Assembly (NCBI GenBank): GCA_050295955.1
Contig: JBNKQQ010000024.1
Span: 13,225-77,224 of the forward strand
Reading direction: 5' to 3'
Length of the DNA: 64,000 nt
Origin: Thiohalomonadales bacterium
GTDB taxonomy: Bacteria > Pseudomonadota > Gammaproteobacteria > RBG-16-57-12
This document shows, one piece after another, positions 24,281-41,442 of the stretch. Numbering within the stretch: the stretch's first letter is position 1; every line of letters begins with the position of its first letter. The notes under the pieces are model-generated. The model had not been told where the DNA came from and did no database searches. It saw nothing but the letters and a program-made list of their open reading frames with translations. The position numbers and the translations under genes are program-made.

Positions 24281-24350
24281 ACCACACAGGGATCACACCA
24301 GGGGGTTGAATCAAGACCCGTAAACGGTAACAAGCGAATTTTTATCGCGC

Positions 24351-24965: not shown

Positions 24966-25970
24966 TTATAGTAAGCGTAGTGTTGGTTCATCAATCAGTG
25001 CAATTTGTTCCCGCAGTGCCTGGACATGCTCTTCCCAATAACGCCCCCCTTCAAACCAGGGAAAGCTCTGTTTAAAAGCGGGATCATCCCAACGCCGCGC
25101 CAGCCAAGCAGCATAGTGAATCATGCGTAACGCACGCAGCGACTCAATCAGGTGGAGTTCTACAGGGTCAAATTCACAAAATTCACTATACCCATCCACC
25201 AGCTCAGCCAGTTGTAACTCCTGCTCATGACGCTCGCCGCTCAACAGCATCCAGAGATCCTGAATTGCCGGCCCCATACGGCAGTCGTCAAAGTCGACAA
25301 AATGGGGGCCATTGTCAGTCCACAATATGTTGCCGGGGTGACAATCCCCATGCAGGCGCAGCTGGCGTAGAGGTCCCACTTGCTCAAAGCGCTCCGTCAC
25401 TTTATCCAGCAAAGTACGGGTAACACTCTGGTAGTTATCTATCAAATAGCCAGGAATCAAGTCATCACGCTGCGCCAGATAGGCCAGCGAATCTTCGCCA
25501 AAACTTTGAATATCCAGAGTAGGGCGGTGGACAAATGATTTGGTGCCAGCAAAGTGGTGGATGCGCCCCATAAAACGCCCCAGCCAGTGCAGGTTATCCA
25601 TATTGTCCAATTCGGGCCAACGACCACCCTGACGAGGAAACAGGGCGAAGCGGTAATCCGCAAACTGTTGCAGCGTTCTCCCTTCAAAGGTCAATGGTGC
25701 AACGACAGGCATCTCCGCCTCCGCCAAGGCACAGCTATAGGCGTGCTCTTCCAGAATCGCCTCATCACTCCAACGCCCTGGGCGGTAAAACTTGGCAATC
25801 AGTGGAACCGCCTCCTCCATTCCCACCTGATAGACCCGGTTCTCATAGCTGTTTAGTGCCAACAGCCGGCCATCGCAAAGCAGCCCCAGGGATTCAACCG
25901 CCTGGAGAATCCGCTCTGGAGAGAGATCTGCGTAAGGTGTGGATTCAGACATGGTGTTGAGGATCATCAA
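24966..25970 (-). CDS. srkA: Stress response Ser/Thr kinase SrkA (RdoA/YihE)
   Basis: LNSYENRVY, KFYRPGRW, LHGDCHPGN, DFDD, RRWDDPAF; true start may be ATG 25967 or 25952. Confidence 0.95.
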   Translation of the reverse strand: MMILNTMSESTPYADLSPERILQAVESLGLLCDGRLLALNSYENRVYQVGMEEAVPLIAKFYRPGRWSDEAILEEHAYSCALAEAEMPVVAPLTFEGRTLQQFADYRFALFPRQGGRWPELDNMDNLHWLGRFMGRIHHFAGTKSFVHRPTLDIQSFGEDSLAYLAQRDDLIPGYLIDNYQSVTRTLLDKVTERFEQVGPLRQLRLHGDCHPGNILWTDNGPHFVDFDDCRMGPAIQDLWMLLSGERHEQELQLAELVDGYSEFCEFDPVELHLIESLRALRMIHYAAWLARRWDDPAFKQSFPWFEGGRYWEEHVQALREQIALIDEPTLRLL

Positions 25971-25973
25971 GTA

Positions 25974-26456
25974 TTAATTCGACCCACAACATTTTTTGTA
26001 TTTCTTACCACTGCCGCAGGGGCAGGGATCATTGCGCCCAATCTTTTCATTGGTGACTTCAATCAAAGGCGGCAGATCATCACCATCCACGTAGAACCAC
26101 TGCCCTGCCTCACGCACAAAACGAGAGCGTTCATGAAGCTGCTCAGGCCGTCCATTGATGGTGTAGCGGGCCACAAACTCAATTTCGCCAGAGGCATCCT
26201 GCTCCCCACCGCCATTAATCTCAAGTACTTCCAGGCCTCGCCACTTCAGCGTTGGGTTATGAGAAATCGCATCACCTGGGCGCGTAGAAGGGTGCCAGGT
26301 TTCATTCAGGTATTCATTATATTCGCGAACATAAGCACAATAGCGGGAGCGCAACAGCGCCTCTGCCGTGGTCACCATCGCCAATTTCTGATGATATTGC
26401 CCACAACACTCCAGGTAATCCCGACCAGAACCGCATTCGCATAGGGTTGCCGCCAT
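25974..26456 (-). CDS. ychJ: YchJ family protein with SEC-C motifs
   Basis: N-terminal CECGSG...[17 protein letters not shown]-terminal [18 protein letters not shown]; start moved to ATG 26456. Confidence 0.92.
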
Positions 26457-26633
26457 CTTACTCTTCTCCTCTTTTTGCCGGCTGATTGTACACCATTCCT
26501 TAAGCAATTGACTAAACCCTAACACACCCCAATTATCATCTATTTTTTTAATCAATACTCGGCAGAATTCGCAACAATAGATCAGAAAAATACATCCATA
26601 ATTAAGAAAAACCAGAAAGTAAAAGGATGATAA

Positions 26634-27599
26634 ATGAGCTTAGTGATTGATGGTCAGCTAAAAACCGAGTGGTTGGAACATGAACGTGAAGCGGGTGAAT
26701 TCGTTCGCCTGGAATCCCAATTTCGACACTGGATCACCCCAGATGGCCGCCCTGGCCCCTCGGGTGAAGGAGGATTTGTGGCTGAGAGAGATCGCTATCA
26801 CCTTTACGTCAGCCTTGCCTGCCCCTGGGCTCACCGCACGCTAATCTTCCGCAAATTGAAGGGTCTGGAGAAGATGATCTCCGTCTCTGTAGTTAATCCC
26901 TACATGGGTGAGGAGGGCTGGCACTTTGCCCCCTATCATGGCAGTACCGCTGATGATATCAATCAGGCTCAGTATCTGTACGAAAACTACCTACTGGCAG
27001 ATCCCCACTATACCGGTATCGTCACCGTGCCCGTGTTGTGGGATAAGCAGCAAAAAACTATCGTCAATAATGAGTCCTCAGAGATCATACGCATGTTTAA
27101 CTCCGCCTTCGATCATCTGGGGGCCAAGCCTGAGGATTACTACCCGGATGCTCTAAGAGTACAAATTGATGAGGTAAACCAGCTGGTCTACAACAATATC
27201 AACAACGGTGTCTATCGGGCAGGCTTCGCCAGTGAGCAACAGGCCTATAAAAAAGCCTATCATCGCTTATTTAGCACCTTGGACCAGCTCGAAGAGCGCC
27301 TCACTCACCAACCATACCTAGCAGGAGAAACCTTAAGCGAGGCGGACTGGCGACTATTTACTACCTTAGTGCGTTTCGATACTGTCTATTACAGTCATTT
27401 TAAGTGCAACCGTCAGCGTTTAGTGGATTATCCCAATCTTTGGCGCTTCACCCGACATCTCTACCAGATAGAGGGCATTGCCGATACCGTCAATATGGAC
27501 CATATCAAGCATCACTATTATGGCAGCCATAAAGAGCTCAATCCAACCGGCATTATCCCCTGTGGGCCAGAGATCGATTTCACGGCAAACCATGAGTAG
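26634..27599 (+). CDS. yqjG: Glutathionyl-hydroquinone reductase (Xi-class GST, YqjG-like)
   Basis: [43 protein letters not shown]. Confidence 0.94.
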
Positions 27600-27622
27600 T
27601 GTGAAACATTTCACACTACTCA
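27593..27622. promoter_or_regulatory. 14-bp perfect inverted repeat containing a consensus CRP/Vfr-type box
   Basis: TGAGTAGTGTGAAA-CA-TTTCACACTACTCA; core TGTGA-AACATT-TCACA at 27600-27615; no U-tract on either side. Confidence 0.55.
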
Positions 27623-27693
27623 CAGCATATAGTATTAAAGCCCTCAACCCCTAGCGTCGACATAATATTGATGGAATTTTATACGGATACACG

Positions 27694-28401
27694 ATGACGT
27701 TACTGTTGGTGGACGATGAAAGTAACATTCTCAGAGCCCTCACCCGGATGCTACGCCGAGATGGCTACAAGATCCTAACCGCCTCAAGCGGTAAGGAGGG
27801 CTTGGAGGTGGTTAATGACAACCCGGATATCAAAGTTATTATCTCAGACCAGCGCATGCCGGAAATGAGTGGTACTGAGTTCCTAAGTCAGGTAAAAGAG
27901 ATTTCCCCTTCAATCATCCGCATTATTTTGAGCGGTTTCTCCGACCTCAACACCATTACTGAAGCGATCAATAAGGGAGAGATCTTCCGCTTTATCAGCA
28001 AACCATGGGATGACGACATACTGCGTGAAAATGTCAAAGATGCTTTTCGCCATTACCAACTCTACACATTAAATGAAGAGTTTTTATTGGATCTGCAACG
28101 ACATGGCCTAACACCGCACCAACTCTCTGTACTATTAGATAACCTCCCTCAGGCCATTATCACTATCGATGATCAACAAAGCATTCACTTTGCCAATCAG
28201 CAGGCCAATCTCATCTTTAATAATAGTGAACCCCTCAAAGGTATGTTGCTGCAAGAGGCGATACCGGCACTTTGTGAGCCATTGGCATCGCAACAACCAC
28301 AGCCGATAGTCATTTCTCAGCAACACTACCAAACAACCTTTAGTAAAATGCAAATAGGTCAGGAGGAACAGCTATTGGTGACATTAACGCCGATAAGCTA
28401 A
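27694..28401 (+). CDS. Response regulator (receiver plus C-terminal PAS-like domain)
   Basis: VDDE, ISDQRMP, LSG, SKPW; LDNLPQAIITID...FANQQA PAS-like segment. Confidence 0.88.
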   Translation: MTLLLVDDESNILRALTRMLRRDGYKILTASSGKEGLEVVNDNPDIKVIISDQRMPEMSGTEFLSQVKEISPSIIRIILSGFSDLNTITEAINKGEIFRFISKPWDDDILRENVKDAFRHYQLYTLNEEFLLDLQRHGLTPHQLSVLLDNLPQAIITIDDQQSIHFANQQANLIFNNSEPLKGMLLQEAIPALCEPLASQQPQPIVISQQHYQTTFSKMQIGQEEQLLVTLTPIS

Positions 28402-28463
28402 ACCGTAGCTCATAACGCATAAGGATTTTGCCATGACACCACTCAGCGACTACCATCAATAAT

Positions 28464-29156
28464 ATGGATAACCCCCGACAGATTCACTATCACTTTGCAT
28501 TTACTGATGGGACCAGCAGTGAATTTAATGTTAGTCTCAATCGGATAACACTGCTTGCCGAAGTGCCTGAATCCTCCGTTCCCTCGTGGTGCCAGCTTCA
28601 GGTTGCGCAGTGCACTAATTGCCCCTTAAAAATCGAAGAAACTCCCCACTGCCCTCTCGCAATGACACTCTCCCCATTGGTAGGCACCTTCTCCGGTCGT
28701 ACTTCACACGACAGCGCAACGGTTACCGTCACCACAGAAGAGCGAACTATTAGCACCCATACCACGCTGCAACGAGGCCTGAGCTCTCTACTTGGTTTAT
28801 TAATGGCAACCAGTGGCTGTCCACACACCCGCCTATTTCGCCCCATGGCCCGCTTCCATCTTCCCTTTTCCAGCGCGGAAGAAACCACCTATCGAGCTGC
28901 CGCCAACTATCTGCTCAGTCAATATTTTTGCGATGGGGAAAAACGGGATTGGCAGTTACAAGGGCTAGCAGAAAGTTATCGGGCTCTACAACAGGTCAAT
29001 GCCGGCATCACCCAACGTCTGAGGCAGGTGTGTGAAGAAGATGCCGCGGTCAACGCAGTGATCCTGCTAGACCTATTCGCTAAAGACATCCCCTACTCCA
29101 TTGAAGAGGCACTGGAAGAATTAAGTCCACTCTTCAAAGCGGGCATCTGCAAATAA
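28464..29156 (+). CDS. Conserved hypothetical Cys-containing protein (DUF6901-like)
   Basis: QCTNCPL...HCP, MATSGCP, RPMARFHLPF, DAAVNAVILLD; family name from recall. Confidence 0.7.
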   Translation: MDNPRQIHYHFAFTDGTSSEFNVSLNRITLLAEVPESSVPSWCQLQVAQCTNCPLKIEETPHCPLAMTLSPLVGTFSGRTSHDSATVTVTTEERTISTHTTLQRGLSSLLGLLMATSGCPHTRLFRPMARFHLPFSSAEETTYRAAANYLLSQYFCDGEKRDWQLQGLAESYRALQQVNAGITQRLRQVCEEDAAVNAVILLDLFAKDIPYSIEEALEELSPLFKAGICK

Positions 29157-29165
29157 ACCACAACA

Positions 29166-31394
29166 CTACTGGGCGCCTAATACCCGTAAAATCTCAGCTA
29201 ATGTAGTATCCCCCTGATCCACCTTGCTATAAGCATCCCGCAACATACTGCTGCCACTGCTCTTGGAGATATATTCATTCAACTCCAACATGGTCACACC
29301 ATCTGACAACATATGGCGTAGATGCTCATCCATGGTTAATACCTCATAGATACCAATACGCCCGGCATACCCCGTCTGTCCACAACGATTACAGCCCACG
29401 CCAATGTAGCTGGCGGGAGGGTGGTCCAGAAACAGTGGTCCCAGTTGCTCCAGTAACTCACCATCATGGGGATGAGGCTCTTTGCAGTGTTGACAGATAC
29501 GCCGTACCAATCGCTGAGCAATAATCGCTTGTAGCGCACTGGCCACCACATAAGACTTCAGTCCCAGATCAAACAGGCGAGCGATAGTAGCAATCGCAGA
29601 GTTAGTATGTAGCGTGGAGTAGACCAAATGACCCGTGAGGGCAGCATGAAACGCCACTTCAGCTGTCTCAAAGTCACGAATCTCACCCAATAGTATGACA
29701 TCGGGATCCTGACGCAGAATCGCCCTCAACACCGAGGCAAAATCCAGTCCAATCTTGTCCCTCACCGCCACTTGACCAGCTGCATCCATGTAATACTCCA
29801 CTGGATCTTCGATGGTGACATAGTTCTTTTCACTGGAGGCATTATGCTGCAGTAATGAATAGAGCGTAGAGGTCTTACCGCTGCCAGTCGGGCCCGTGGT
29901 CAAAATAATCCCCTGAGGGCGACTCACTACATTCAACACCTTCTTTAAGTCACTGCTACTGAAATCCAACTGTTCCAATGTGCGGATAGAGGCATTTCGA
30001 TCCAACAGGCGCATCACCACTTTCTCACCATTAATGGTAGGTAGTGTAGAGATCCGCAAGTCCACCACTTTAAGGGGGCTCTTCACCGCAATCCGTCCAT
30101 CCTGCGGTTTACGCCGCTCAGTAATATCCAGCTCAGCCATCACCTTGATACGGGAAACCAATGGCAACAACAGGGAGTTGGGGACTTTGATCTTGTCATG
30201 CAGCACCCCGTCAATGCGATAGCGCACCACGACGCTTTTCGTACGCGGATGAATATGAATATCACTGGCACCCAGACGGATTGCCTCCAAAATAATCGCA
30301 TTCACCAGGCGAATAGCCGGTGGCTCTTCGGTGCCTTCCAACAAGGTTTGCAGATCAAGATTCTCATCTTCCTCGATGATCACCTCAATCCCATCATAGG
30401 GGTCCACATCAGAGATAATAGTCTCTAGACCCTTAATCCCCTCATCTTCATAAACCTCCGCCAACTTGGCTTCAATATCCACCACATTGGCCATCACCGG
30501 CTGAATCTTCACCCCCAGACCAAATCCCAAATCCTGAGTAATACCACTATCCATGGGATCGGCCATCACCAGAACCAGTCGCTGATTCTCCAAGCGTAAC
30601 GGGATCATCAACTGCTGCCGGCAGAGACTCAGCGGGATTAACGACGCCACTGCCGGATCGATACTGACCTCCGCCAATGCCACCTCTTCAATCATCAGCT
30701 CATCACGGAGGATCTTGCGTATTTTGCTCTCATCGACCCACTCCTTCTCCATCAGAATGGAAAAGACCGGTTTTTGACGACGCTGCTGTAGCTTGTAGAT
30801 CTCTTGTAACTGCTGATCATTCAACAAGCCACGCTTATGTAGCATGATAGCCAGCTGACTACGATTAGTCAGACTCAACTTCGCCATCGCCTTAAGTTCA
30901 CGACTCTGTTTAGCGGCTTGCTGCTGTAACTGACGATTTTTACGCTGTAGCTCATACTGTTCCAAAGCAACTGCTACTGTCACTCGCAAGTCATCATCAT
31001 TCCACGGTTTGAGGATGAATTTATAAACTGCCCCCTCTTTGATAGCACTCATCACAGCACCGGTATCCGCATGCCCGGTTAACATAATACGAATGGTTTC
31101 AGGGTAGAGCTCTTTGATCTTATAAAGCAGATCACCACCCGTGATTCCCGGCATCATATAGTCACTGATCACAATCTCACAGGGGTGGTCAGCCATCAGC
31201 TCTAACGCCTCCTGAGCATTGTTCGCCACCAAGACTTTGTAATTCTCCTGACGAAAGATACGCTTCAGCGCATTCAACACATTAGGCTCATCGTCCACCA
31301 ATAACAGTCGGTAGGGCTCACGCTGTGGTACGGCTTCCAGCGATTGCTCGCCATCCTCTTTCTCTCCGGTGAAAAGGGCTCGATATATCGACAT
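29166..31394 (-). CDS. Receiver-domain-fused GspE/PilB-family secretion ATPase
   Basis: N-terminal receiver (VDDE, ISDYMMP, LTG, KPW); ASDIH, PQDGR, Walker A GPTGSGKTS, TIEDPVE, GEIRD, TGHLVYSTLH, CQHC/CNRC zinc motif. Confidence 0.93.
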   Translation of the reverse strand: MSIYRALFTGEKEDGEQSLEAVPQREPYRLLLVDDEPNVLNALKRIFRQENYKVLVANNAQEALELMADHPCEIVISDYMMPGITGGDLLYKIKELYPETIRIMLTGHADTGAVMSAIKEGAVYKFILKPWNDDDLRVTVAVALEQYELQRKNRQLQQQAAKQSRELKAMAKLSLTNRSQLAIMLHKRGLLNDQQLQEIYKLQQRRQKPVFSILMEKEWVDESKIRKILRDELMIEEVALAEVSIDPAVASLIPLSLCRQQLMIPLRLENQRLVLVMADPMDSGITQDLGFGLGVKIQPVMANVVDIEAKLAEVYEDEGIKGLETIISDVDPYDGIEVIIEEDENLDLQTLLEGTEEPPAIRLVNAIILEAIRLGASDIHIHPRTKSVVVRYRIDGVLHDKIKVPNSLLLPLVSRIKVMAELDITERRKPQDGRIAVKSPLKVVDLRISTLPTINGEKVVMRLLDRNASIRTLEQLDFSSSDLKKVLNVVSRPQGIILTTGPTGSGKTSTLYSLLQHNASSEKNYVTIEDPVEYYMDAAGQVAVRDKIGLDFASVLRAILRQDPDVILLGEIRDFETAEVAFHAALTGHLVYSTLHTNSAIATIARLFDLGLKSYVVASALQAIIAQRLVRRICQHCKEPHPHDGELLEQLGPLFLDHPPASYIGVGCNRCGQTGYAGRIGIYEVLTMDEHLRHMLSDGVTMLELNEYISKSSGSSMLRDAYSKVDQGDTTLAEILRVLGAQ

Positions 31395-31399
31395 ATGGC

Positions 31400-32647
31400 C
31401 TACTCCCTGTTTGGTAGCTTGATAATAAAGGTAGCTCCCTGGCCCACTGTACTACTTACCTCAATGGCTCCCTGATGAGCAGTGACAATATCACTTGCAA
31501 CAGTTAACCCCAGCCCTACGCCCCCCCCCACTTCCCTCGTGGTAAAAAATGGATCAAATATATGTGCAAGTTGCGCCTCCTCGATTCCTACCCCATTATC
31601 TTCAACCACGATTTCGATGCCTGATGATGTGGTACGGCTCCTAATTTCTACCTTGCCATGAGGCACACACGCCTGCACCCCATTGAGTAGAATATTCATT
31701 AACAACTGCCCCATATCAGCAGGCATACAACGGTATCGGGGGAGTGCGGTTAAATGACATTGGAACGTTACCTCTGGTGGAGCCTGCAAGCTCACCATCT
31801 GGATGGCATTTTCGATGATCTCATTCAGCTCCACCAGCTCCTCCTCCGCACGATCAATTGCCGAAAAGTGGCGCAAGCTTTTTACAATGGCTGCCACCCG
31901 CTCAATACCATTCAATGACTCCTCCATCAAATGAGGAAAATCCTCCAGCACAAAATCCAAATCATGCTCTTGCCAATATTGCACAAACGATGACGGCATT
32001 CCCTGCTTCCGCAACTCCTGTAGCATTGGTTCAATCAAATGAAGATAACCGCATGCCGATGAGAGATTGCTTTTTACAAATCCAATCGGATTATTAATTT
32101 CATGGGCAACACCGGCAGCCAGCTGCCCAATTGACGCCTGTTTTTCTGAACGATAAAGCTGCCGCTGACGCTCCTGTAACTGCTGCAGCTGCGCTTCGAC
32201 ACGCTGCTCCAACTGTTCCGATAGCGCCTTATAGGCCATCTGTGACTGCTGTAATTCACTGTGTTTTTGTTGTAACGCCTGATAATCGTCTTTAATCGCT
32301 TCGAGGTGTAAAGATGATGCCATAAGGTAACGGGCCGTACTGCGTAGCAAGGCTTGTGCGACACCTTGCAGCGCCCTCTGCTGCGCCTCATCCACATGAT
32401 CTTCGATAGCCAGATAACCCACCGGCTCTAACTCAAAAACCAGTGGCAAAAATTGGGGGGAGTCGAGCTTTTCGGCACCGGCAATCCACTTAGCCGAGGC
32501 ATCCAATAACTGCACGGGTGAATCAGCTAAGACATGCAATTGCTCCAGCAGCTGCGCTACATTTACGCCATTCAGCAACTGCACCAAAGTAAATTCATCA
32601 TCATAACCGGATAGCAGCCCTTCTATGTGTTGTTCTCCCTGGCTCAT
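31400..32647 (-). CDS. Cytoplasmic sensor histidine kinase
   Basis: SIGQLAAGVAHEINNP H-box, NILLNG, DNGVGI, FDPFFTT, GVGLGL; no TM segments. Confidence 0.93.
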   Translation of the reverse strand: MSQGEQHIEGLLSGYDDEFTLVQLLNGVNVAQLLEQLHVLADSPVQLLDASAKWIAGAEKLDSPQFLPLVFELEPVGYLAIEDHVDEAQQRALQGVAQALLRSTARYLMASSLHLEAIKDDYQALQQKHSELQQSQMAYKALSEQLEQRVEAQLQQLQERQRQLYRSEKQASIGQLAAGVAHEINNPIGFVKSNLSSACGYLHLIEPMLQELRKQGMPSSFVQYWQEHDLDFVLEDFPHLMEESLNGIERVAAIVKSLRHFSAIDRAEEELVELNEIIENAIQMVSLQAPPEVTFQCHLTALPRYRCMPADMGQLLMNILLNGVQACVPHGKVEIRSRTTSSGIEIVVEDNGVGIEEAQLAHIFDPFFTTREVGGGVGLGLTVASDIVTAHQGAIEVSSTVGQGATFIIKLPNRE

Positions 32648-33294
32648 CCTCCCCCCTTAATCTCCTTAATAAAAGCAGACTGACTTAGGTGATGCTTTCC
32701 CGCCAATTGGTATTCACCATCCAAGCGCAGATAGAGCTGCTCCAACAAAGCAACAAAGGTCTGCACCACCCCCTCTCCCCGGCTGGCACTGCTATAACAG
32801 AGTGGCCAATTTGTTTTTTGCCAACGCGCATTAATCTCCTCTTCGGAAACGATCTGCGGTAAATCCCGTTTATTAAACTGAACGACCAAAGGGAGTCGCT
32901 CAAAATCCAAGCCAACCTTGGCACTATTTTCCGCAAGATTTTCAAAAGAGAGGGCATTATTTAGACTTTGGTTCTGCTGCGAGTCAGCGACAAACACCAC
33001 ACCATCGGCGCGGGAAAGCACCGCTTTGCGGGTACTATCGTGAGCGACCTGACCAGGCACGGTATAGAGCTTGAACTTAATTAGCAGACCAGATGGGGCT
33101 CGAATTCCCAAAGGAAATAGATCAAAAAACAGCGTGCGATCATTTTTGGTCTCAAGGGTCATCATCTCCCCCTTGAGTTGAGGACTAAGTTGATCGTGCA
33201 GACTCATTAAATTTGTCGTCTTGCCACTCAGAGCGGGCCCATAGTAGACCAACTTAAGCGTTAATCGTGACAGCTCCTCATCATACTCAGCCAT
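32644..33294 (-). CDS. mglA: MglA-family small Ras-like GTPase
   Basis: KLVYYGPALSGKTTN, DRTLFFD, LYTVPGQV, ADGVVFVADS, QFNKRD. Confidence 0.9.
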   Translation of the reverse strand: MAEYDEELSRLTLKLVYYGPALSGKTTNLMSLHDQLSPQLKGEMMTLETKNDRTLFFDLFPLGIRAPSGLLIKFKLYTVPGQVAHDSTRKAVLSRADGVVFVADSQQNQSLNNALSFENLAENSAKVGLDFERLPLVVQFNKRDLPQIVSEEEINARWQKTNWPLCYSSASRGEGVVQTFVALLEQLYLRLDGEYQLAGKHHLSQSAFIKEIKGGG

Positions 33295-33300
33295 TGTCCT

Positions 33301-34632
33301 TCACTCCAAACTCTCATCCATGACATAGATCTTAAATTGCTCATCAAAGGAGCGTTCAAATCGACGAATCTTGTCGATCAAATCGATATCAAGCACGTGT
33401 CCACGAGACAATAGCAACACACCATTACGTACAATCAGGTCACGGGAAATAATCATCCCTTCCTGCAGATCACCAGAACGAAGTGAGCGATCCTGATCTA
33501 CCCTCTCGATTGGCCCAATATCACTATATTCCGCAAACTCTTTCAGGAAGGTTTCAACAATTACCGGATCATAACGAACATGAGCATGCCTACGTAGATA
33601 TTCACAGGCCTCTTGTGCACTCATTTTTTGCGTTTTTAGAATCCCCTTCTGCAACCCATCAAACTCATCGACCACAGCTAGAATGCGAGCACCCAAAGGA
33701 ATATCTTTCCCGGATAAACCATCTGGATAGCCACGTCCGTCAAACAACTCATGATGATGACGAATAATTTTTGCTGCACCCTGCATGGGCTCAATCGACA
33801 TAATTGCAGCCTCAGCAATAATCGGATGTTCCGCAACCGTGGCCCGCTCATCCTTAGAGAGAGAATAGAATGGCGCATTGGCTAGCCGATCAGGCAGTGC
33901 CAAATAACCCATGTCATGCAACATACCGGCGAATAAAATATCCTGCAGGTCATTTTTATCCACACCTAATTTAATGGCCAGATGATAGGCCTTATCCGCA
34001 ACTGAGCGGGAGTGTCCTGTCATGGTACCACCACGCACCTCCAGTAGGTTGGCAAACATCTTCACCGTGGCACCATAGCTGTGTTTTAAATTTGAATAAG
34101 CACTTTCTAGTTGAGTATGGGCCTGGCGCAACTCTGCCGTACGCTCCCTGACCTTATCCTCCAACGAGGCATTCAGCACCTTCAGTTGCTCATTCTGTTC
34201 AGCGGTTAATGCCTGTAGGCGATCCCGTTCTTGCAGAAGCTGCTTACGCTCCAGTGCATTACGCACCGAGGTTTTAAGGTCATTCTCCTCCCATGGTTTA
34301 CTAATATATTTGTAGATGCTCCCTTCATTGATCGCCTGTATTGCGGAGCTCAAATCGGCATACCCCGTTAGCAGAATACGTATTACATCAGGCCATTTTT
34401 TCGCCGCTATCGCCAAAAACTGCGCACCATCCATCTCTGGCATTCGCATGTCGGAGATAATCAAATCCACCGCTTCCGATTCAAGAATCTCCAGCCCTTC
34501 AGCAGCACTACTTGCTGTGATGATGCGATAACCCGTTGGCCGAAATAACCGGCGCAGAGAGGACAATATATTGGATTCATCGTCCACAATCAGCAGAGTG
34601 GCATTTGCCTGCTGCATCTCCACTTCCCCCAT
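33301..34632 (-). CDS. Receiver-HD-GYP cyclic-dinucleotide phosphodiesterase
   Basis: Receiver ISDMRMP; GHSRSV, LHDMG, HHELFDGRGYPDG, ARILAVVD. Confidence 0.93.
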   Translation of the reverse strand: MGEVEMQQANATLLIVDDESNILSSLRRLFRPTGYRIITASSAAEGLEILESEAVDLIISDMRMPEMDGAQFLAIAAKKWPDVIRILLTGYADLSSAIQAINEGSIYKYISKPWEENDLKTSVRNALERKQLLQERDRLQALTAEQNEQLKVLNASLEDKVRERTAELRQAHTQLESAYSNLKHSYGATVKMFANLLEVRGGTMTGHSRSVADKAYHLAIKLGVDKNDLQDILFAGMLHDMGYLALPDRLANAPFYSLSKDERATVAEHPIIAEAAIMSIEPMQGAAKIIRHHHELFDGRGYPDGLSGKDIPLGARILAVVDEFDGLQKGILKTQKMSAQEACEYLRRHAHVRYDPVIVETFLKEFAEYSDIGPIERVDQDRSLRSGDLQEGMIISRDLIVRNGVLLLSRGHVLDIDLIDKIRRFERSFDEQFKIYVMDESLE

Positions 34633-34637
34633 CTCCG

Positions 34638-36986
34638 TTAGCCCCCTATGGCAATGTTCTCATCGAGCGAAGCCTTCACTGGTAAACGAATCGTGAAGGT
34701 AGTTCCCCTTCCCAGCTCTGTATCAATCTCTATGCGACCATTATGTTTTTCCACAATACTGAACGACAGTGAGAGCCCGAGCCCTGTCCCCTGACCTACT
34801 GGCTTTGTGGTAAAAAAGGGATCAAAGATACGCTTAATATGCTCTTCCGAAATGCCTTTTCCCGTATCAGAAAATTGCACCCATACCCACTCCCCCCCTT
34901 CCATACCGGTGCTAATCGTAATGACACCTCGCTCCTCAATAGCATGGGCAGCATTGACTAACATATTCATAAACACCTGATTCAACTGTGAAGGGATACA
35001 CTGAATGTCGGGGAGCTGACCGTACTCTTTTTTCACCTCGGCTTTATACTTCAACTCGTTCCAAACAATGTTCAGCGTGCTATCCAGGCCATCATGAAGA
35101 TTGGCCTCCTGCCACTCCGCCTCATCAACATGAGAGAAATCCTTTAGATCTTTTACGATCTGTTTTACCCGAGAGATGCCTTCCAATGATTCACCTAACA
35201 GATCCTGAATATCATCCCGCAAGAAATTCAGATCATGTTTTTTCTCCAGTGTCTGTAGCTCCTGCTGTATCTCATCCGGCAATAGCTCACGCTTCTGTTG
35301 GTAGTTGTCAATTACTTGAAAAAGGTCGCCAATGTAGCCACGCAAAGAGACGATGTTAGAGTTAATATAGCCAACAGGATTATTGATTTCATGGGCAACA
35401 CCAGCCGCTAATTGCCCAATCGATGCCATCTTTTCAGATTGTAGTAGCTGCTGTTGTGCCTCTTGTAACTGTGCCAAACTCTGTTCCAACTCATACTGTA
35501 CTTTGGCACGTTCACACTGCAGCATGTGATTGGAAATAATTTCAGAAAGTGCCGTCACAAAATAGTGTTCATCAACATGCCACTCCCGCACACGATTGCA
35601 CTGTTCTAGCGCGATCACCCCCACTGTCGTTCCCTCTGTCCAAATCGGTATATACATGGCAGAGGTAATTCCCTGAGGGCGGTAATAGCTCACTTTTAAC
35701 TCTTCCAACCCCTGATACTCTTCAGTATCTGCAATGTTCAATACTTGGCTGAACAACTCACTATGCAATCCTTTTGGGTAATCCTGAGGGGTTAATGCAC
35801 TTTTATACTCATTCTCATCCTGCAAAGAAGAGTAACGCGAATAGCTCTCAGGTAATCCTCGGCTATCAAACATCCATATCAGAACCTGGTCCACCTTTAA
35901 CGAGCGACCAATTACCCGAGTCAGCGATTTTAATTCCAGACTGAGGTCGCCACAGCTCTCCAAATCACTCCCCATTAGGTCTGCAAGAATAGAGTGCTGG
36001 TTGATCAAGCTAATCTCTTTATCTTCCAACTCCCGATTTTTCTCCATCAGGCTATTTAACAGACGTTGACGGCTGACAATTTTTTCCAATTCGTTTGCAT
36101 AAAGACTAGCAATCTCCATCTCCAAATCGCCATATTCACTACCAATTGGCTTATTGGCTACATACAGAAAACTAGGAGGACTACCATTGATTTGTATACG
36201 CTGACAGAGCAATCCTCTAATAGGCTCTTCATCACCAGCCCATCGTCCTTCGATATTCAACGCCTCAATATCGGTAATAATGGTTGGCTCAATATCCACA
36301 ATGCCTTGAAAAAGCGTTGTTAATAGCAATTCGTGGAGAGGATCCTCATCACTACTGACCATCTCAAGCAGATTACCCTCTTCATCAAAATGCCCCAGGG
36401 CACTATGGCTGGAATTGGTCAGCTCTTGTAGATCTCGCAAGTAGAGATAAAAAATCTCATGCCATTCATGAAACTCATCATCCAGCATCAAGCGATCCAG
36501 CTCCCTTACTTTGGCGGCGGCCATAATAAAGGTTGTCATGCGATTGATCTCTCGGGAGAGGTTATTGGCCAGCAGGCGCTTATCATCTAATAACTTTCTG
36601 ACCTCCAAATCGGAATGATGTAGAGATAGACTCAATTCAACCGCCACTTCCAACTCGCGTGGCTTAAGGGGCTTTACCAGATAGTGATAGACTCCCAGCT
36701 TCTTCGCCCGCTGAAAAGCCTCTTCGTCGTCAGCGCCAGTCAAAAGAATGACCGGAATACTATACTCATTCAGAATAATCTCAGCCGCATTCAGACCACC
36801 TAACTCACCTTCAAGAACAATATCCACCAATACAAGATCAGGCTGTAATGTTGAAAGTGAATCGATCGCTTGTTCTGCGCAAGGAAAGGTGGCGATGACA
36901 GAGTAGCCGGCCTGTTCAAGGGTAAGAGTGTAAAGGGATAGCAGGTCGCTATCATCATCGACAATAATCAACCGCTCCTTCGTCAT
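34638..36986 (-). CDS. Hybrid histidine kinase (receiver-GAF-GAF-HisKA-HATPase)
   Basis: N-terminal receiver, two GAF-like segments, SEKMASIGQLAAGVAHEINNP; start moved to ATG 36986 behind AAGGAGGAG RBS. Confidence 0.92.
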   Translation of the reverse strand: MTKERLIIVDDDSDLLSLYTLTLEQAGYSVIATFPCAEQAIDSLSTLQPDLVLVDIVLEGELGGLNAAEIILNEYSIPVILLTGADDEEAFQRAKKLGVYHYLVKPLKPRELEVAVELSLSLHHSDLEVRKLLDDKRLLANNLSREINRMTTFIMAAAKVRELDRLMLDDEFHEWHEIFYLYLRDLQELTNSSHSALGHFDEEGNLLEMVSSDEDPLHELLLTTLFQGIVDIEPTIITDIEALNIEGRWAGDEEPIRGLLCQRIQINGSPPSFLYVANKPIGSEYGDLEMEIASLYANELEKIVSRQRLLNSLMEKNRELEDKEISLINQHSILADLMGSDLESCGDLSLELKSLTRVIGRSLKVDQVLIWMFDSRGLPESYSRYSSLQDENEYKSALTPQDYPKGLHSELFSQVLNIADTEEYQGLEELKVSYYRPQGITSAMYIPIWTEGTTVGVIALEQCNRVREWHVDEHYFVTALSEIISNHMLQCERAKVQYELEQSLAQLQEAQQQLLQSEKMASIGQLAAGVAHEINNPVGYINSNIVSLRGYIGDLFQVIDNYQQKRELLPDEIQQELQTLEKKHDLNFLRDDIQDLLGESLEGISRVKQIVKDLKDFSHVDEAEWQEANLHDGLDSTLNIVWNELKYKAEVKKEYGQLPDIQCIPSQLNQVFMNMLVNAAHAIEERGVITISTGMEGGEWVWVQFSDTGKGISEEHIKRIFDPFFTTKPVGQGTGLGLSLSFSIVEKHNGRIEIDTELGRGTTFTIRLPVKASLDENIAIGG

Positions 36987-37201
36987 TTCTCCTCCTTGAG
37001 TCGTCAATTGAACATCTTGCCGCTGTTAACCCGCCGTTGTCTGCACGGGAACCTTTCGATAATGGAATAATGCATGGCTAACCACCCACGCGATTGCAAA
37101 AAATTGCCACCACGCCCCATACGACATTAATAACGACCAGTGCTCAATAATCCTAAGAAAAACTGTTAAAATGGCACCTCATTTAACTCGACAATTTCAT
37201 C

Positions 37202-38125
37202 ATGACCCCAGCACTTCGTATTCAAGGCCTGCGCAAGACCTATAAGAACGGTTTCACCGCACTAAGCGGTATTGACCTGGAGGTACAGCAGGGGGATTTT
37301 TTCGCCTTACTGGGCCCCAATGGTGCAGGCAAATCCACTACCATCGGTATCGTCAGCTCTCTGGTTAACAAAAGTGGCGGCCAAGTGGAAATCTTTGGGC
37401 ACAATCTGGATAGCGAACTAGAGGCAGCCAAATCCTGCATTGGCTTGGTTCCCCAAGAGTTTAACTTCAACGTATGGGAGCCGGTTGCTGAAGTTGTCAT
37501 CAACCAAGCGGGTTATTATGGCATCGACCGCACTACAGCCACCCAACGGGCAGAGAAGTATCTAAAGCAGTTGGGATTATGGGAAAAGCGTAGCTCCATG
37601 TCTCGCAACCTCTCTGGCGGTATGAAGCGCCGTCTAATGATTGCACGGGCATTGGTACATCAGCCTAAGTTATTGATTCTGGATGAGCCTACCGCTGGTG
37701 TAGATATCGAAATCCGCCACTCCATGTGGCAATTCCTTAAACAGATTAATCGCGAAGGGACGACGATCATCCTCACCACCCACTATCTGGAAGAGGCTGA
37801 GAGCCTTTGCCGCAATATTGCCATTATCGATCAAGGTCAAATTGTAGAAAACACCAGCATGAAGCATTTGCTTAACCAACTGAATGCAGAAGCTTTTGTC
37901 CTGGATTTGGCAAACCCCATTGACTATACACCTGAATTAGCCGGTCACGATATTATCATCCTGGATGAAACCACTTTAGAGGTGTGCATCGACAAGCAGA
38001 TCGGCATTAACAAACTGTTTGAAGACCTCAGCCAACACAACATCAAAGTATTAAGCATGCGTAATAAAACCAACCGCCTGGAACAGCTATTCATGGGCCT
38101 GGTTAATCAGAGCAATGGTGAATAA
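37202..38125 (+). CDS. yadG: ABC-2 transporter ATP-binding protein (YadG-like)
   Basis: GPNGAGKST, LSGGMKRR, LILDEPT, TTHYLEEAE, SMRNKTNRLE. Confidence 0.92.
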   Translation: MTPALRIQGLRKTYKNGFTALSGIDLEVQQGDFFALLGPNGAGKSTTIGIVSSLVNKSGGQVEIFGHNLDSELEAAKSCIGLVPQEFNFNVWEPVAEVVINQAGYYGIDRTTATQRAEKYLKQLGLWEKRSSMSRNLSGGMKRRLMIARALVHQPKLLILDEPTAGVDIEIRHSMWQFLKQINREGTTIILTTHYLEEAESLCRNIAIIDQGQIVENTSMKHLLNQLNAEAFVLDLANPIDYTPELAGHDIIILDETTLEVCIDKQIGINKLFEDLSQHNIKVLSMRNKTNRLEQLFMGLVNQSNGE

Positions 38126-38128
38126 GCT

Positions 38129-38902
38129 ATGACCGCTAAAGAGAAATACATCGCATTTCAGACGATTTTAATCAAAGAGATTCTGCGATTCTCTCGAATC
38201 TGGCTACAGACCATTCTGCCGCCAATGATTACCACTGCCCTCTATTTCATCATCTTCGGTAACCTGATTGGCTCACAGATCGGTGATATGGATGGATTCC
38301 GCTATATGGATTATATCGTCCCTGGCCTGATCCTGATGGCCATCATCACCAACTCCTATAGCAATGTGGTCTCATCATTCTATAGCTCTAAATATCAAAA
38401 CCACATTCAAGAGATGATTGTTGCCCCGCTACCCAACTATGTCATCCTACTTGGCTTTGTCGCAGGAGGCGTGGCTCGTGGGCTGGTAGTAGGCCTATCA
38501 GTGACCATTGTCTCGCTCTTTTTCAGTGAGCTAAATATCGCCCACTACGGGATCACTTGCAGTATTGCGGTTCTCACCGCCATCCTCTTCTCCATCGCGG
38601 GTTTAATCAATGGCATCTATGCCAACTCTTTTGATGATATCTCCATCATCCCGACCTTTGTACTCACCCCTCTCACCTATCTGGGCGGGATCTTCTACTC
38701 TATCAGCATGCTTCCAGAATTCTGGCAAGATGTCTCACTAGCGAATCCCATTCTCTATATGGTGAATGGCTTCCGCTACGGCATCCTGGGAAACTCGGAT
38801 ATTGCACCTATCGCCTCTTTCAGCCTGATTAGCATCTTTATTGTCGGACTCTATCTTTATGCCCTCTGGTTACTCAACAAAGGACATGGCATCCGCGCCT
38901 AA
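38129..38902 (+). CDS. yadH: ABC-2 transporter permease (YadH-like)
   Basis: RIWLQTILPP, NSYSNVVSSF, FDDISIIPTFVLTPLTYLGG; about 6 TM. Confidence 0.92.
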   Translation: MTAKEKYIAFQTILIKEILRFSRIWLQTILPPMITTALYFIIFGNLIGSQIGDMDGFRYMDYIVPGLILMAIITNSYSNVVSSFYSSKYQNHIQEMIVAPLPNYVILLGFVAGGVARGLVVGLSVTIVSLFFSELNIAHYGITCSIAVLTAILFSIAGLINGIYANSFDDISIIPTFVLTPLTYLGGIFYSISMLPEFWQDVSLANPILYMVNGFRYGILGNSDIAPIASFSLISIFIVGLYLYALWLLNKGHGIRA

Positions 38903-38926
38903 AGAGTGCACAGAAATGGCCGATCT
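38900..38926 (+). promoter_or_regulatory. Sigma28 (FliA)-type promoter
   Basis: TAAA-N15-GCCGATCT versus consensus TAAA-N15-GCCGATAA, about 30 nt upstream of the tandem-receiver gene. Confidence 0.6.
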
Positions 38927-38955
38927 ATTCCGAGTTAACACTCTACGGATCGGCC

Positions 38956-39753
38956 ATGAAATCACTCAGCATTAGTGACCTTTCACTACTCATCGTTGAA
39001 CCTTCCAGTACCCAAGCCAAAATCATTGGCGACAAACTCCATGAACTGCAACTCAACCGACTCGAATTTGTCAGCAATGGCGAAGAGGCGTTGCAGTCCA
39101 TGTTGCAGAATCTCCCCGACCTAGTCATTAGCAGCATGTATCTCCCCGATACGGATGCGGCTAAGCTGGTACAAACCATGCGAAGTTCAGAAAAGCTGTG
39201 TGACGTTCCCTTCATGTTAATCTCCAGCCAGACCTCCTTCGCTGAACTGGACCCCCTCCGCCAAGCAGGCGTAGTAGCGATTCTCCCCAAGCCCTTCGAC
39301 ATCACTGATCTCAAGCGTGCCCTCAACTCGACACTCGACCATATTTGCGTGGATGAAGATGCTCTGGCAGATATTGATGTGGATAACCTATCCGTTCTAG
39401 TTGTGGATGATAGCTCCACGGCTAGACGCCATATCAGCCGAGTACTCGCTAATCTGGGGATCGAAAACATTACCACGGCTAAAAACGGTATTGAGGGTGC
39501 GCAAAAACTGAATGAAAGCTACTTCGATCTGGTTGTTACCGACTACAACATGCCGGAGATGGACGGTGAGCAGCTCACCCGCTATATCCGCGAACACAGT
39601 TCACAACGCTCAATCCCTGTACTCATGGTAACCAGTGAAGAAAGTGGCAGTCGGCTCTCTGCCGTTCAGCAAGCTGGCGTATCCGGCATCTGTGACAAAC
39701 CCTTCGACCCTCAAGTGGTCAAACAGCTCATCCGAAGTGCGTTGAGCGAATAA
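38956..39753 (+). CDS. Tandem receiver-domain protein (pseudo-receiver plus canonical receiver)
   Basis: Domain 1 VEPS/VISSMY (Asp replaced by Ser)/KPF; domain 2 VDDS/VTDYNMP/VTS/KPF. Confidence 0.9.
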   Translation: MKSLSISDLSLLIVEPSSTQAKIIGDKLHELQLNRLEFVSNGEEALQSMLQNLPDLVISSMYLPDTDAAKLVQTMRSSEKLCDVPFMLISSQTSFAELDPLRQAGVVAILPKPFDITDLKRALNSTLDHICVDEDALADIDVDNLSVLVVDDSSTARRHISRVLANLGIENITTAKNGIEGAQKLNESYFDLVVTDYNMPEMDGEQLTRYIREHSSQRSIPVLMVTSEESGSRLSAVQQAGVSGICDKPFDPQVVKQLIRSALSE

Positions 39754-39761
39754 TTTCAGGC

Positions 39762-39911
39762 AAAAAAAAGAGGCCAGCAGCTAATTGGGGGGAGCCACCG
39801 ACCTCATACTAGAAAGTAGGAGGAGAATCATTGCATTCGCAATAATTCAACTTCGAGTGGCAATGAAAGCGGCTTCATGCCGAGGAGGAAGGGGGAGCCA
39901 CTCGAAGCTGC
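39762..39911 (-). ncRNA. Candidate sigma54-dependent structured sRNA, copy 1
   Basis: Stem CAGCUUCGAGUGGC/GCCACUCGAAGUUG with a C-rich loop, hairpin GAAUUAUUGC/GCAAUGAUUC, linker UCCUCCUACUU, terminator GAGGUCGGUGGCU-CCCCCCAAUU-AGCUGCUGGCCUC-U8. Confidence 0.75.
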
Positions 39912-39920
39912 TATATATAA

Positions 39921-39937
39921 TACAAAGAACGTGCCAA
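39921..39937 (-). promoter_or_regulatory. Sigma54 -24/-12 promoter, copy 1
   Basis: Minus strand TTGGCACG-TTCT-TTGTA (GG-N10-GT). Confidence 0.75.
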
Positions 39938-39954
39938 CTTCAAATAACCTAGCA

Positions 39955-39967
39955 AATCAATAGTTTA
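39955..39967. promoter_or_regulatory. IHF site, copy 1
   Basis: AATCAA-TAGT-TTA is an exact WATCAANNNNTTR match, between the promoter and the upstream palindromes. Confidence 0.65.
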
Positions 39968-39990
39968 CTAAATTAGTCAAAATAAAGCAG

Positions 39991-40026
39991 TGCGGCATAT
40001 CCCGCAATCGTGCTGCATTTCACAAA
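39991..40026. promoter_or_regulatory. Paired upstream activator-like sites, copy 1
   Basis: TGCGGCATATCCCGCA (39991) and TGCTGCATTTCACAAA (40011), 20 bp apart; a related TGCGGCAAATACTACA lies at 40066. Confidence 0.5.
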
Positions 40027-40161
40027 TTATTTTTCAAATACAGCGACTTATACCCCTTCAGATAATGCGGCAAATACTACACATACCACTATGTGCTGAC
40101 AAGCTCAATTCTCATACTAAAAAACTCATCTGAAATAAAAATAATCAGGCTTCACTTAGGC

Positions 40162-40303
40162 AAAAAAAAAGGCCATGCACTATGGGGGTAGTACATGACC
40201 TTATATAAGTAAGTAGGAGAAGAATCATTGCTATGCAATAAATCTTATCGCGCTCACAGTGTGTTGGCATCTGCCGGAGGGGGGTTCACACTGTGTCGCG
40301 ACA
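40162..40303 (-). ncRNA. Candidate sigma54-dependent structured sRNA, copy 2
   Basis: Stem UGUCGCG-CACAGUGUG/CACACUGUG-CGCGAUA with a CCCCCCUCC loop, hairpin UUAUUGC/GCAAUGA, linker UCUCCUACUU, terminator AAGGUCAUGUACUA-CCCCCA-UAGUGCAUGGCCUU followed by a U-run. Confidence 0.75.
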
Positions 40304-40313
40304 ATTAATATAA

Positions 40314-40330
40314 TACAATCACCGTGCCAA
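40314..40330 (-). promoter_or_regulatory. Sigma54 -24/-12 promoter, copy 2
   Basis: Minus strand TTGGCACG-GTGA-TTGTA; same spacing as copy 1. Confidence 0.75.
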
Positions 40331-40347
40331 CTTTTAATTTTCTTTAT

Positions 40348-41424
<1,077 letters not shown>

Positions 41425-41442
41425 TCTTTAAAGCTTTGTATC

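Follow-up and report, generated by a model that had tools for sequence, protein, structure and literature searches.

Among bacteria, MglA serves as the model of a Ras-like polarity switch, and to our knowledge its biology has been worked out almost wholly together with the GTPase-activating protein (GAP) MglB, in a few deltaproteobacteria and in Thermus. How might an MglA work whose operon encodes no MglB but a histidine kinase and a motor ATPase? This question is raised by a locus of Thiohalomonadales bacterium (Gammaproteobacteria; GenBank assembly GCA_050295955.1) on a 64,000-nucleotide (nt) stretch of contig JBNKQQ010000024.1 (positions 13,225 to 77,224 of the forward strand), which we call the window and whose numbering is used throughout. 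We find that the MglA gene belongs to a real, conserved and uncharacterised module, best filed as an MglB-independent MglA wired to the two-component signalling of an orphan ATPase. Three adjacent genes form its core:

32644..33294, minus strand: MglA-family small GTPase of Group-1 type, 216 amino acids (aa), by PDB search, motif counts and alignment
31400..32647, minus strand: core soluble histidine kinase, called HK2, 415 aa, by Pfam/NCBIfam, AlphaFold2 (AF2) model and fold matches
29166..31394, minus strand: REC–MshEN-like–T2SSE ATPase, 742 aa, by Pfam/NCBIfam and motif reading

A first-pass annotation of the locus, made from the letters alone, had proposed a poorly characterised module in which a small GTPase, two soluble kinases and c-di-GMP converge on a dedicated ATPase. 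As described below, the MglB-less MglA, the phosphorelay and the dedicated ATPase hold up in a conserved, all-cytoplasmic module, and other parts of the proposal had to be revised.

A compact operon of cytoplasmic proteins

Open reading frame (ORF) listing and translation place the core within five minus-strand genes (34638-37007, 33301-34632, 32644-33294, 31400-32647 and 29166-31394) that are as tightly packed as first described. The gaps between them are 5, 6 and 5 nt, and the MglA stop overlaps the HK2 start as ATGA, read directly as GGAGGATGAGCC and preceded by GGAGGA, so that MglA and HK2 are predicted to be translationally coupled. A REC–PAS gene and a DUF6901 gene run towards the ATPase gene on the plus strand, and the facing stop codons of the DUF6901 and ATPase genes are 9 nt apart. 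The promoter-like (12) and terminator-like (10) sites of the region show no excess over shuffled sequence.

By Pfam, the five operon genes have the architectures REC-GAF-HATPase_c; REC-HD_5; a small GTPase whose only matches, to Arf and Ras, are weak; a HATPase_c kinase whose N-terminus lacks a family match; and REC-MshEN-T2SSE. The two convergent genes encode REC-PAS and DUF6901 proteins. Two earlier calls change in detail: the first gene, annotated as a hybrid kinase, does encode a kinase, but its layout is an N-terminal receiver followed by GAF, and the gene annotated as receiver-GspE/PilB has both the receiver and the T2SSE domain with an extra MshEN-type N1 domain between them. A membrane helix is predicted in none of the seven proteins (maximum Kyte–Doolittle score, KD(19), at most 1.47, against 2.39 in a neighbouring ABC-2 permease), and both kinases are thus soluble by this measure, as proposed. 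Among the 14 window ORFs from 24966 to 41424, Pfam found no Roadblock, pilin, platform or secretin gene, in agreement with the first-pass annotation.

The MglA–HK2–ATPase triad is conserved

We scanned one genome per species and obtained at least 599 candidate stretches, at least 510 of which encode an MglA relative, and kept the best 80 loci. Their MglA proteins are 64-73% identical to that of the window and come from beta- and gammaproteobacteria, plus one metagenome-assembled genome labelled Deltaproteobacteria; carriers include Methylomonas, Methylotuvimicrobium, Sulfuricella, Pseudothauera, Thiobacillus, Rhodocyclaceae and Chromatiales. To identify neighbouring genes, we searched every ORF of the 80 loci by BLASTP with domain-specific query pieces cut from the window proteins. 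Of the 79 loci whose sequence extends 1.3 kb or more past MglA, 77 encode the HK2 N-domain immediately after it. The two misses (L013 and L035) hold runs of N, and tblastn recovers the kinase and ATPase pieces in order. Where at least 3.6 kb of downstream DNA is available, MglA, HK2 and the REC-MshEN-T2SSE ATPase follow one another on the same strand in every locus (68/68). The loss of synteny that would have counted against the module is therefore not borne out.

We also ran Pfam on 77 ORFs from 8 loci picked for diversity, and none of them is a Roadblock, pilin, platform or secretin gene. Bare triads amid unrelated genes are seen, for instance, in L042, beside chitinases and murB, and in L028, beside an EAL gene and a large GGDEF-EAL gene. 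Since bare triads have no other kinase or receiver nearby, HK2 and the receiver of the ATPase form a natural phosphotransfer pair, and we consider it probable that they are cognate. That the triad is a functional unit we hold with high confidence.

The triad is inherited whole and distributed patchily

To what extent do the three genes travel together? An evenly drawn sample of the window's class contained MglA in 4 of 251 genomes, including the window's own. A profile of the HK2 N-terminus, scored on 250 of these genomes, gave full-length matches (E 1e-53 to 1e-65) only in the same four, adjoining MglA, and three weak matches elsewhere in the sample cover the coiled coil only. Residues 141-340 of the ATPase behaved likewise: besides the window's own copy, matches with E at or below 8e-65 were found in G074, G095 and G137 (53-56% identity over the whole query), and the next best match was 7.6e-17. 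The ATPase tally also includes genome G141, which has a weak generic match only and on which none of our conclusions depends. Hence MglA, HK2 and the linker/MshEN region of the ATPase co-occur in exactly the same four genomes, side by side.

A genome of the same genus, G107, lacks a detectable MglA at 100% completeness. Its sequence matches the flanks of the locus at 70-75% DNA identity (window 22000-24281, 24976-26448, 37164-39746 and 40207-41432), and window 26449-37163 has no DNA match in it save one 66% paralogue hit; the G107 contigs break or rearrange at both flanks, so that this comparison reads as absence of the block and presence of the flanks, with no junction. The triad is an accessory unit with a patchy distribution, inherited whole. 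High conservation combined with this patchiness suggests horizontal spread.

An MglA with a changed P-loop

A search of all PDB sequences with the window GTPase returned the MglA of M. xanthus (6h17) at E 3.6e-45 and that of T. thermophilus (3t12) at E 1.9e-43, both over residues 10-200, with the DRTLFFD and TVPGQ motifs of the window protein in register with the structural Arg53 and Gln82. By sequence this GTPase is a true MglA homologue. We aligned it with the 80 fetched relatives (n = 81) and found Arg53, Thr78, Gln82 and the G4 motif NKRD in 81/81, so that the retention of the intrinsic arginine and catalytic glutamine noted in the first-pass annotation extends to the whole clade. Position 21, the equivalent of Ras Gly12, is Ala in 80 sequences and Ser in one, and the P-loop of the window protein reads GPALSGKT. 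The clade therefore has the canonical N-K-x-D G4 motif and lacks the Gly21 of MglB-coupled MglA. This Gly21-to-Ala change, which the first-pass annotation did not mention, is the best sequence clue that MglB may be dispensable here; we know of no measurement of what an Ala there does to MglA.

Other substitutions at position 21 have been characterised. MglA G21V lowers GTP hydrolysis, as do Ras G12S/V at the same position, according to the passages cited here from Milner et al. 2014 (PMC3983030). The same passages describe Bdellovibrio MglA as having Ser21 and no MglB, propose it to be GTP-locked, and refer to a survey by Keilberg et al. in which five species had "MglA A/S21 with no MglB". This type of MglA had thus been glimpsed in an earlier survey, yet not described. 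Clade members also carry a C-terminal extension of about 20 aa (residues ~186-216; window 32644-32740, minus strand) beyond the 195-203-aa MglA chains in the PDB. In the alignment His201 of this extension is invariant and Phe208 nearly so, and it may be a partner-binding tail.

Roadblock genes do not follow the module

A genome search for mglB had been suggested as a check on the absence of MglB from the locus. The window's genome does encode Roadblock proteins on another contig, C62: a 121-aa Robl_LC7 protein (61 bits) and a second, weak match, which scored 22.6 bits when the genome was searched and, on the 211-aa ORF, 21.7 bits against a cut-off of 23. The cluster there (L004:1059-3418) comprises a protein of at least 324 aa that is open at the contig end, the Robl_LC7 protein of 121 aa, a protoglobin-like protein of 190 aa, a TPR protein of 245 aa, the weak Robl_LC7 protein of 211 aa and a 108-aa ORF, with no GTPase gene nearby. 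The C62 protein is nearer to generic Robl (E 2e-12) and CvnB (E 2e-5) than to MglB (E 0.04).

G107, which has no module, has three Roadblock matches, similar to the genes of the window's genome, and the other three carriers of the class sample have none (0/3; completeness 99, 92 and 73%). We searched 50 carrier genomes, chosen from the 80 loci for long flanks, with PF03259, counting a match at E of 0.01 or less. There was a match in 11 (10 of them over the cut-off) and none in 39, including the two complete chromosomes behind L019 and L025. As BLASTP queries, the genome's own Roadblock proteins found nothing at any of the 80 MglA loci. The C62 Roadblock as a cognate MglB is disfavoured.

HK2 and its predicted complex with MglA

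HK2 consists of a mini GAF-like N-domain (~residues 23-113), a long coiled coil, a DHp domain of the H-E-I-N-N type and HATPase_c. In its translation the H-box reads AHEINNP, and the N, G1 and G2 boxes are complete. The AF2 model of the first 170 residues, built on a 48-sequence alignment, has a pLDDT of 91.9 and shows a short helix, four strands and a long helix running into DHp. The first-pass annotation had suggested that the N-terminal domain of this kinase could replace MglB or act as the effector of the GTPase. With Foldseek, the best matches to the model are GAF domains (CodY, KdpD and NifA; E 0.02-0.1), and MglB chains follow at E 0.23-0.26. VIA-align gave GAF domains (PelD 4dmz, 3hcy, 3eea and PDE2A) at Z 6.4-6.8 over 87-91 residues, scores that tie with coiled-coil matches to the long helix; MglB is absent from the 50 rows listed. 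The domain thus reads as a truncated GAF-like domain in the model, of about 90 residues against 140-150 in the matched GAF domains. As it looks more GAF-like than Roadblock-like, the replacement of MglB finds no structural support, though a Roadblock relationship may still exist. The role of effector fits the co-occurrence of the two genes and the complex model below.

The N-domain defines a small and uniform family. Among 1.84 billion representatives, 484 sequences match it at E of 1e-3 or less, 232 at 1e-10 or less and 110 at 1e-30 or less; full-length members are ~400-420 aa long and begin with the domain (~residues 3-175). Near-invariant positions of the alignment are F15, D16, R17, E74, R106, Y107 and H114.

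We modelled MglA(1-200) with GTP and Mg together with HK2(1-130), using a 48-row alignment for each and three controls. The interface score (ipSAE) was 0.59, 0.58 and 0.58, within the tool's "weak support" band, as compared to 0.00, 0.01 and 0.13 for the controls. The partner pLDDT was at least 83, and contacts agreed to at least 98% between runs. In the tool's calibration, 116 of 157 solved complexes passed the mark, as did 2 of 215 mismatched pairs. We put the binding of MglA to the HK2 N-domain at even odds.

Natural fusions of A21-type MglA give hints only of coupling to such partners. Among the longer MglA relatives, P0121 (386 aa) is a REC+MglA fusion and P0122 (660 aa) a REC-HD-GYP+MglA fusion, while P0126, from a 3.27-Mb contig, is an MglA-PocR-HisKA-HATPase_c protein of 728 aa with an A21-type P-loop. 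P0121 joins to MglA a single-receiver protein of the kind seen upstream of mglA at many loci.

A receiver-fused orphan ATPase

The receiver of the ATPase has its DD acidic pair, acceptor Asp, Thr and Lys in the translation. The T2SSE domain (PF00437, 425 bits, residues 356-737) contains Walker A GPTGSGKT, Walker B DPDVILLGEIRD and the His box TGHLVYSTLHT, and a tetracysteine CxxC...CxxC motif is present. These features assign the protein, at the sequence level, to the secretion/pilus ATPases of the T2SSE superfamily. It scores below the equivalog models of both PilB (TIGR02538, 544.6 bits against a cut-off of 675.65) and GspE (TIGR02533, 530.4 bits against 630.25) and does not lie in a gsp operon. 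Its core has GspE as nearest paralogue in the genome (48% identity, 372 bits), then PilB (42%, 318 bits). The genome encodes five long GspE/PilB-type ATPases and two platform genes (PilB with PilC on C53, GspE with GspF on C22), which makes the module ATPase one of three orphans. The other two, MshEN-T2SSE ATPases of 753 aa and 802 aa on contig C83 (L085:7304-9565 and L086:7045-9453), have an N-terminal region of ~250 aa without a family match and lie among housekeeping genes, one behind der/engA, the other behind ferrochelatase.

Could the motor respond to c-di-GMP through its MshEN-type domain? The Pfam match to MshEN (60 bits) covers the C-subdomain only. In the passages cited from Wang et al. 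2016 (PMC5013675), c-di-GMP binding is ascribed to two tandem 24-residue motifs, RLGxx(L/V/I)(L/V/I)xxG(L/V/I)(L/V/I)xxxxLxxxLxxQ in relaxed form. None of the 69 clade ATPases matches this form: in motif I, RLG is changed to QLA, and in motif II the Gly is Ile, Leu or Val. The 802-aa orphan ATPase of the same genome, used as a positive control, matches both motifs (the 753-aa ATPase does not), so the test has power. Canonical binding of c-di-GMP by the module motor is thus unlikely, as judged by these motifs. The MshEN-like region is nonetheless highly conserved (Q195, Q197, E198, W219 and E222), which suggests that it serves another role.

Accessory genes around the triad

The remaining genes of the window locus are:

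33301..34632, minus strand: REC–HD-GYP, predicted c-di-GMP phosphodiesterase, accessory, 443 aa (Pfam/NCBIfam)
34638..37007, minus strand: REC–GAF–histidine kinase, accessory, 789 aa from TTG (Pfam/NCBIfam)
27694..28401, plus strand: REC–PAS protein, accessory, 235 aa (Pfam/NCBIfam)
28464..29156, plus strand: DUF6901 protein, an occasional neighbour of the module, 230 aa (Pfam, 253 bits)

The longest ORF of the REC–GAF kinase begins at a TTG at 37007, and an in-frame internal ATG at 36986 is an alternative start. We count the REC–GAF kinase, REC–HD-GYP and DUF6901 genes as accessories because their presence varies across loci. The sensor region of the REC–GAF kinase was found in 3 of 80 loci, with the closest locus (L005) sharing its architecture, so that HK2 is the only core kinase of the two soluble kinases first proposed. 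Of the 72 loci with enough upstream DNA, 44 have REC–HD-GYP no more than 1.5 kb ahead of MglA, 39 have a single-receiver protein, missing from the window, directly upstream of mglA, and 50 have one or the other. This single-receiver protein has ~170-200 aa, with a REC domain and a ~60-aa tail without a Pfam match (L041:9420-9971, L031:9480-9998 and L015:9418-10008). DUF6901 occurs in 6 of 80 loci and REC-PAS-like proteins in about 27 of 80; the REC–PAS protein of the window is 50% identical to a REC protein of L005. The convergence of c-di-GMP on the ATPase that the first-pass annotation envisaged is doubtful, given the degenerate binding motif.

The REC–HD-GYP protein scores 550 bits on NCBIfam NF053512 ("NosR family"; cut-off 400) and its motifs are intact (HD, LHDMGY; GYP, GRGYPDG). 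A Pfam scan of the 14 window ORFs turned up neither FIST/NosP nor H-NOX, and with no FIST/NosP gene near it the family name is no sign that this protein serves the sensing of nitric oxide. Three receivers, those of the REC–PAS protein, the ATPase and the HD-GYP protein, score similarly (173-183 bits) on the receiver part of one NCBIfam model and hence represent one subtype; the REC–PAS receiver is a paralogue of the other two. Both kinases have a HEINN-type DHp and match the same "T2SS_HK" model below its cut-off.

DUF6901 proteins form a family of 2956 homologues at E of 1e-10 or less, ~50% identical and from many phyla, with Cys50, Cys53, Cys63, Cys119 and His132 invariant. The model (pLDDT 90.4, pTM 0.87) has no structural match, with a best Foldseek E of 0.24 and a best VIA Z of 4.7 (none of 5 or more among 48,161 chains), and the protein may be a metal-binding protein of undescribed fold. 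We considered DUF6901 as a core partner, a disguised Roadblock/GAP protein, and rejected this, given the confident model without structural match and a family far wider than the module. It adjoins two-component genes at the loci where it is seen. The protein atlas returned only DUF6901 clusters, and we found no paper on the family. Further along the window, a 265-aa protein at 38956-39753 (plus strand) contains two receiver-domain stretches and lies downstream of a divergently transcribed ABC-2 transporter pair; it is kept in the same-genus genome (81% identity) and is thus outside the variable block.

Model and alternative explanations

Our model builds on the observed gene order, domain content, motifs, co-inheritance and lack of MglB; each binding and phosphotransfer step in it, and the identity of the machine driven by the ATPase, we infer. 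MglA, in one nucleotide state, would bind the mini GAF-like N-domain of HK2 and act as an accessory switch on the kinase/phosphatase balance, as H-NOX and NosP do on soluble HEINN-type kinases; the order accessory protein–HEINN kinase–RpfG-type receiver parallels NosP/NosK/NosR, and it is on this parallel that MglA is proposed as the HK2 switch. HK2 would then phosphorylate or dephosphorylate the receiver fused to the ATPase, and receiver phosphorylation would gate the assembly or activity of the hexameric motor. As it has no platform gene of its own, the motor probably docks on a platform from another locus (PilC of the T4aP or GspF of the T2SS), or else drives an unknown machine; a pilus or secretion platform as the output is possible, at roughly one chance in three. 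Ala21, with Arg53 and Gln82 kept, would replace the MglB-dependent GTPase cycle with one that is slow or under a different partner. The REC–GAF kinase, REC–HD-GYP and REC–PAS proteins, given the shared receiver subtype, may be side branches that provide extra inputs and a c-di-GMP-degrading output. We give a cytoplasmic MglA(Ala21)–HK2–REC-ATPase signalling module of this kind about a one-in-two chance of being correct. A more specific cascade from G protein to kinase to motor, in which a GAP-independent MglA(Ala21) directly switches HK2, HK2 licenses the orphan ATPase, the triad is mobile among beta- and gammaproteobacteria and the mini GAF-like domain may itself be a GAP or guanine nucleotide exchange factor (GEF), is offered tentatively, at slightly worse than even odds.

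Several points weigh against this model. The "weak support" band of the complex score (up to 0.60) contains 18 of the passing solved complexes and both of the mismatched pairs, and the modelled MglA was cut at residue 200, leaving out part of the conserved C-terminal extension with His201. HK2 of the window reads Y-D-D-E at residues 15-18 in place of F-D-R-E, so that it has lost the near-invariant Arg17 found in 44 of 48 sequences and may couple differently. We found no MglA–HK2 fusion among the best 150 of the 484 HK2-N relatives; the fusions P0121, P0122 and P0126 are single-member clusters and possible gene-calling artefacts, and the kinase of P0126 is from another family. A T2SSF platform gene is present in 53/53 carrier handles, or 51 distinct genomes (G074 = G289 and G095 = G258, with identical coordinates), but platform genes are nearly universal, so this co-occurrence neither supports nor tests the sharing of a platform. 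Finally, no kinase is among the MglA effectors known to us from Bdellovibrio and M. xanthus, which are TPR proteins and receiver proteins, and MglA could bind or localise the ATPase instead.

This last possibility can be extended to an alternative in which MglA has a direct effect on the ATPase, by recruitment or localisation as in the control of type IV pilus (T4P) polarity in Myxococcus and Bdellovibrio, while HK2, its N-domain sensing a small ligand, is an independent, parallel input to the receiver. Stimulation of T4P formation by MglA-GTP via effectors, as given in the passages cited for M. xanthus (PMC7519303, PMC7668184) and Bdellovibrio (PMC3983030), would fit such an action, GAF is a classic small-ligand fold with PelD, 3hcy and 3eea among the matches to the N-domain (Z 6.4-6.8 over 87-91 residues), and co-inheritance of the triad is equally consistent with this wiring. 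We nevertheless consider it unlikely, since the N-domain is shortened to ~90 residues relative to GAF domains of 140-150, was found in the class sample solely beside MglA of this clade, is encoded by a gene that overlaps mglA by ATGA, and in complex with MglA scores 0.58 against 0.13 for the best control.

The GTPase cycle itself admits two further explanations. MglA(Ala21) could be a permanently GTP-bound structural subunit or adaptor that does not switch, leaving an ordinary two-component system from HK2 to the REC-ATPase; Ala21 in 80/81 sequences, the lower hydrolysis of MglA G21V and Ras G12S/V together with the GTP-locked state proposed for the Ser21 protein of Bdellovibrio (passages cited from PMC3983030), and the lack of a Roadblock GAP in 39 of 50 carriers all point that way. 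Arg53 and Gln82 are, however, invariant in 81/81 sequences at only 64-73% overall identity, which argues that hydrolysis is still under selection, and we regard a locked adaptor as quite improbable. Least probable of all, and in our estimate very unlikely, is a split but conventional pair in which the C62 Roadblock proteins are the cognate MglB of the module MglA. The C62 cluster has no GTPase gene of its own and we found no second MglA-like gene in the genome, as such a pair would have it, but Roadblock matches occur without the module in G107, the module occurs without Roadblock in the three other class-sample carriers and in 39/50 carrier genomes, the C62 protein is far closer to generic Robl and CvnB than to MglB, and the clade MglA has Ala21 at the GAP-sensitive position. 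A switch exerted by MglA on HK2 remains our preferred reading.

Relation to known systems

By its sequence features, the module lies outside the MglA/MglB, conservon, PilB and GspE systems as these are defined. Its GTPase is homologous to the MglA of the M. xanthus and T. thermophilus MglA–MglB pairs (Group 1 in the scheme of Wuichet & Søgaard-Andersen 2014) and shares with them Arg53, Thr78-x-x-Gly-Gln82 and NKxD; as M. xanthus MglA stimulates T4P, the module MglA is likewise tied to the PilB-type ATPase family. It differs in having no adjacent or co-occurring Roadblock GAP, Ala for Gly21 and a ~20-aa C-terminal extension, and in that its operon also encodes a histidine kinase and a receiver-fused ATPase. 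The MglA of Bdellovibrio bacteriovorus also has a change at position 21 and no MglB, and belongs to a network with c-di-GMP components and T4P; in the passages cited (PMC3983030) its partners are a TPR protein, RomR and CdgA, and no kinase or ATPase gene adjoins its own, whereas the module has Ala, a dedicated kinase and a REC-ATPase. Actinobacterial conservons (CvnA-CvnD, with a Group 2 MglA) also encode an MglA-family GTPase with a histidine kinase, and the two are thought to be coupled. As presented in the passages cited (PMC4316618), conservons have a membrane kinase, Roadblock, CvnC, a divergent G4 and no response regulator. The module has a soluble kinase, canonical NKRD, no Roadblock or CvnC, and a receiver-fused ATPase as output.

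On the kinase side, NosP/NosK/NosR and H-NOX/HnoK also place a small accessory protein by a soluble H-E-I-N-N kinase with a ~130-aa N-region that lacks a family match. The kinases of these systems feed RpfG-type receivers including REC–HD-GYP, and the window HD-GYP protein passes the NosR-family model. In NosP/NosK/NosR the accessory protein controls kinase autophosphorylation, according to the part of PMC12570481 cited here. The NosR of B. pseudomallei has degenerate HD and GYP motifs, those of the window protein are intact, and in the module MglA occupies the position of the accessory protein. On the motor side, the module ATPase shares with MshE, PilB and GspE proteins that contain MshEN the T2SSE core, the MshEN match, the Walker and His boxes and the tetracysteine. 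It differs in its N-terminal receiver, the lack of platform, pilin and secretin genes nearby, its sub-cut-off scores and degenerate c-di-GMP motifs (69/69). REC–MshEN fusions are mentioned in the passages cited from Wang et al. 2016 (PMC5013675).

The system has not, as far as we could find, been described before. In the parts cited here, Wuichet & Søgaard-Andersen 2014 place some Group 1 MglA in beta- and gammaproteobacteria, note that their neighbourhoods "vary widely" and set aside 59 orphan MglA. Neither "receiver" nor "GTPase" occurs in a 2024 review of PilB regulation (PMC11656802). We found no description of the triad in full-text searches of the open literature; the supplementary tables of Wuichet & Søgaard-Andersen 2014 may list its genes.

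Significance

A large and sharply defined clade of MglA, with at least 510 relatives, has dropped MglB and changed the GAP-sensitive glycine of its P-loop. Its carriers include cultivated methanotrophs and sulfur oxidisers, so genetics is feasible. The module is a compact, all-soluble system of three proteins in which to ask whether a small GTPase can directly gate two-component signalling, and it bears on the receiver-fused regulation of GspE/PilB-type motors and on the roles of orphan ATPases that have no platform of their own.

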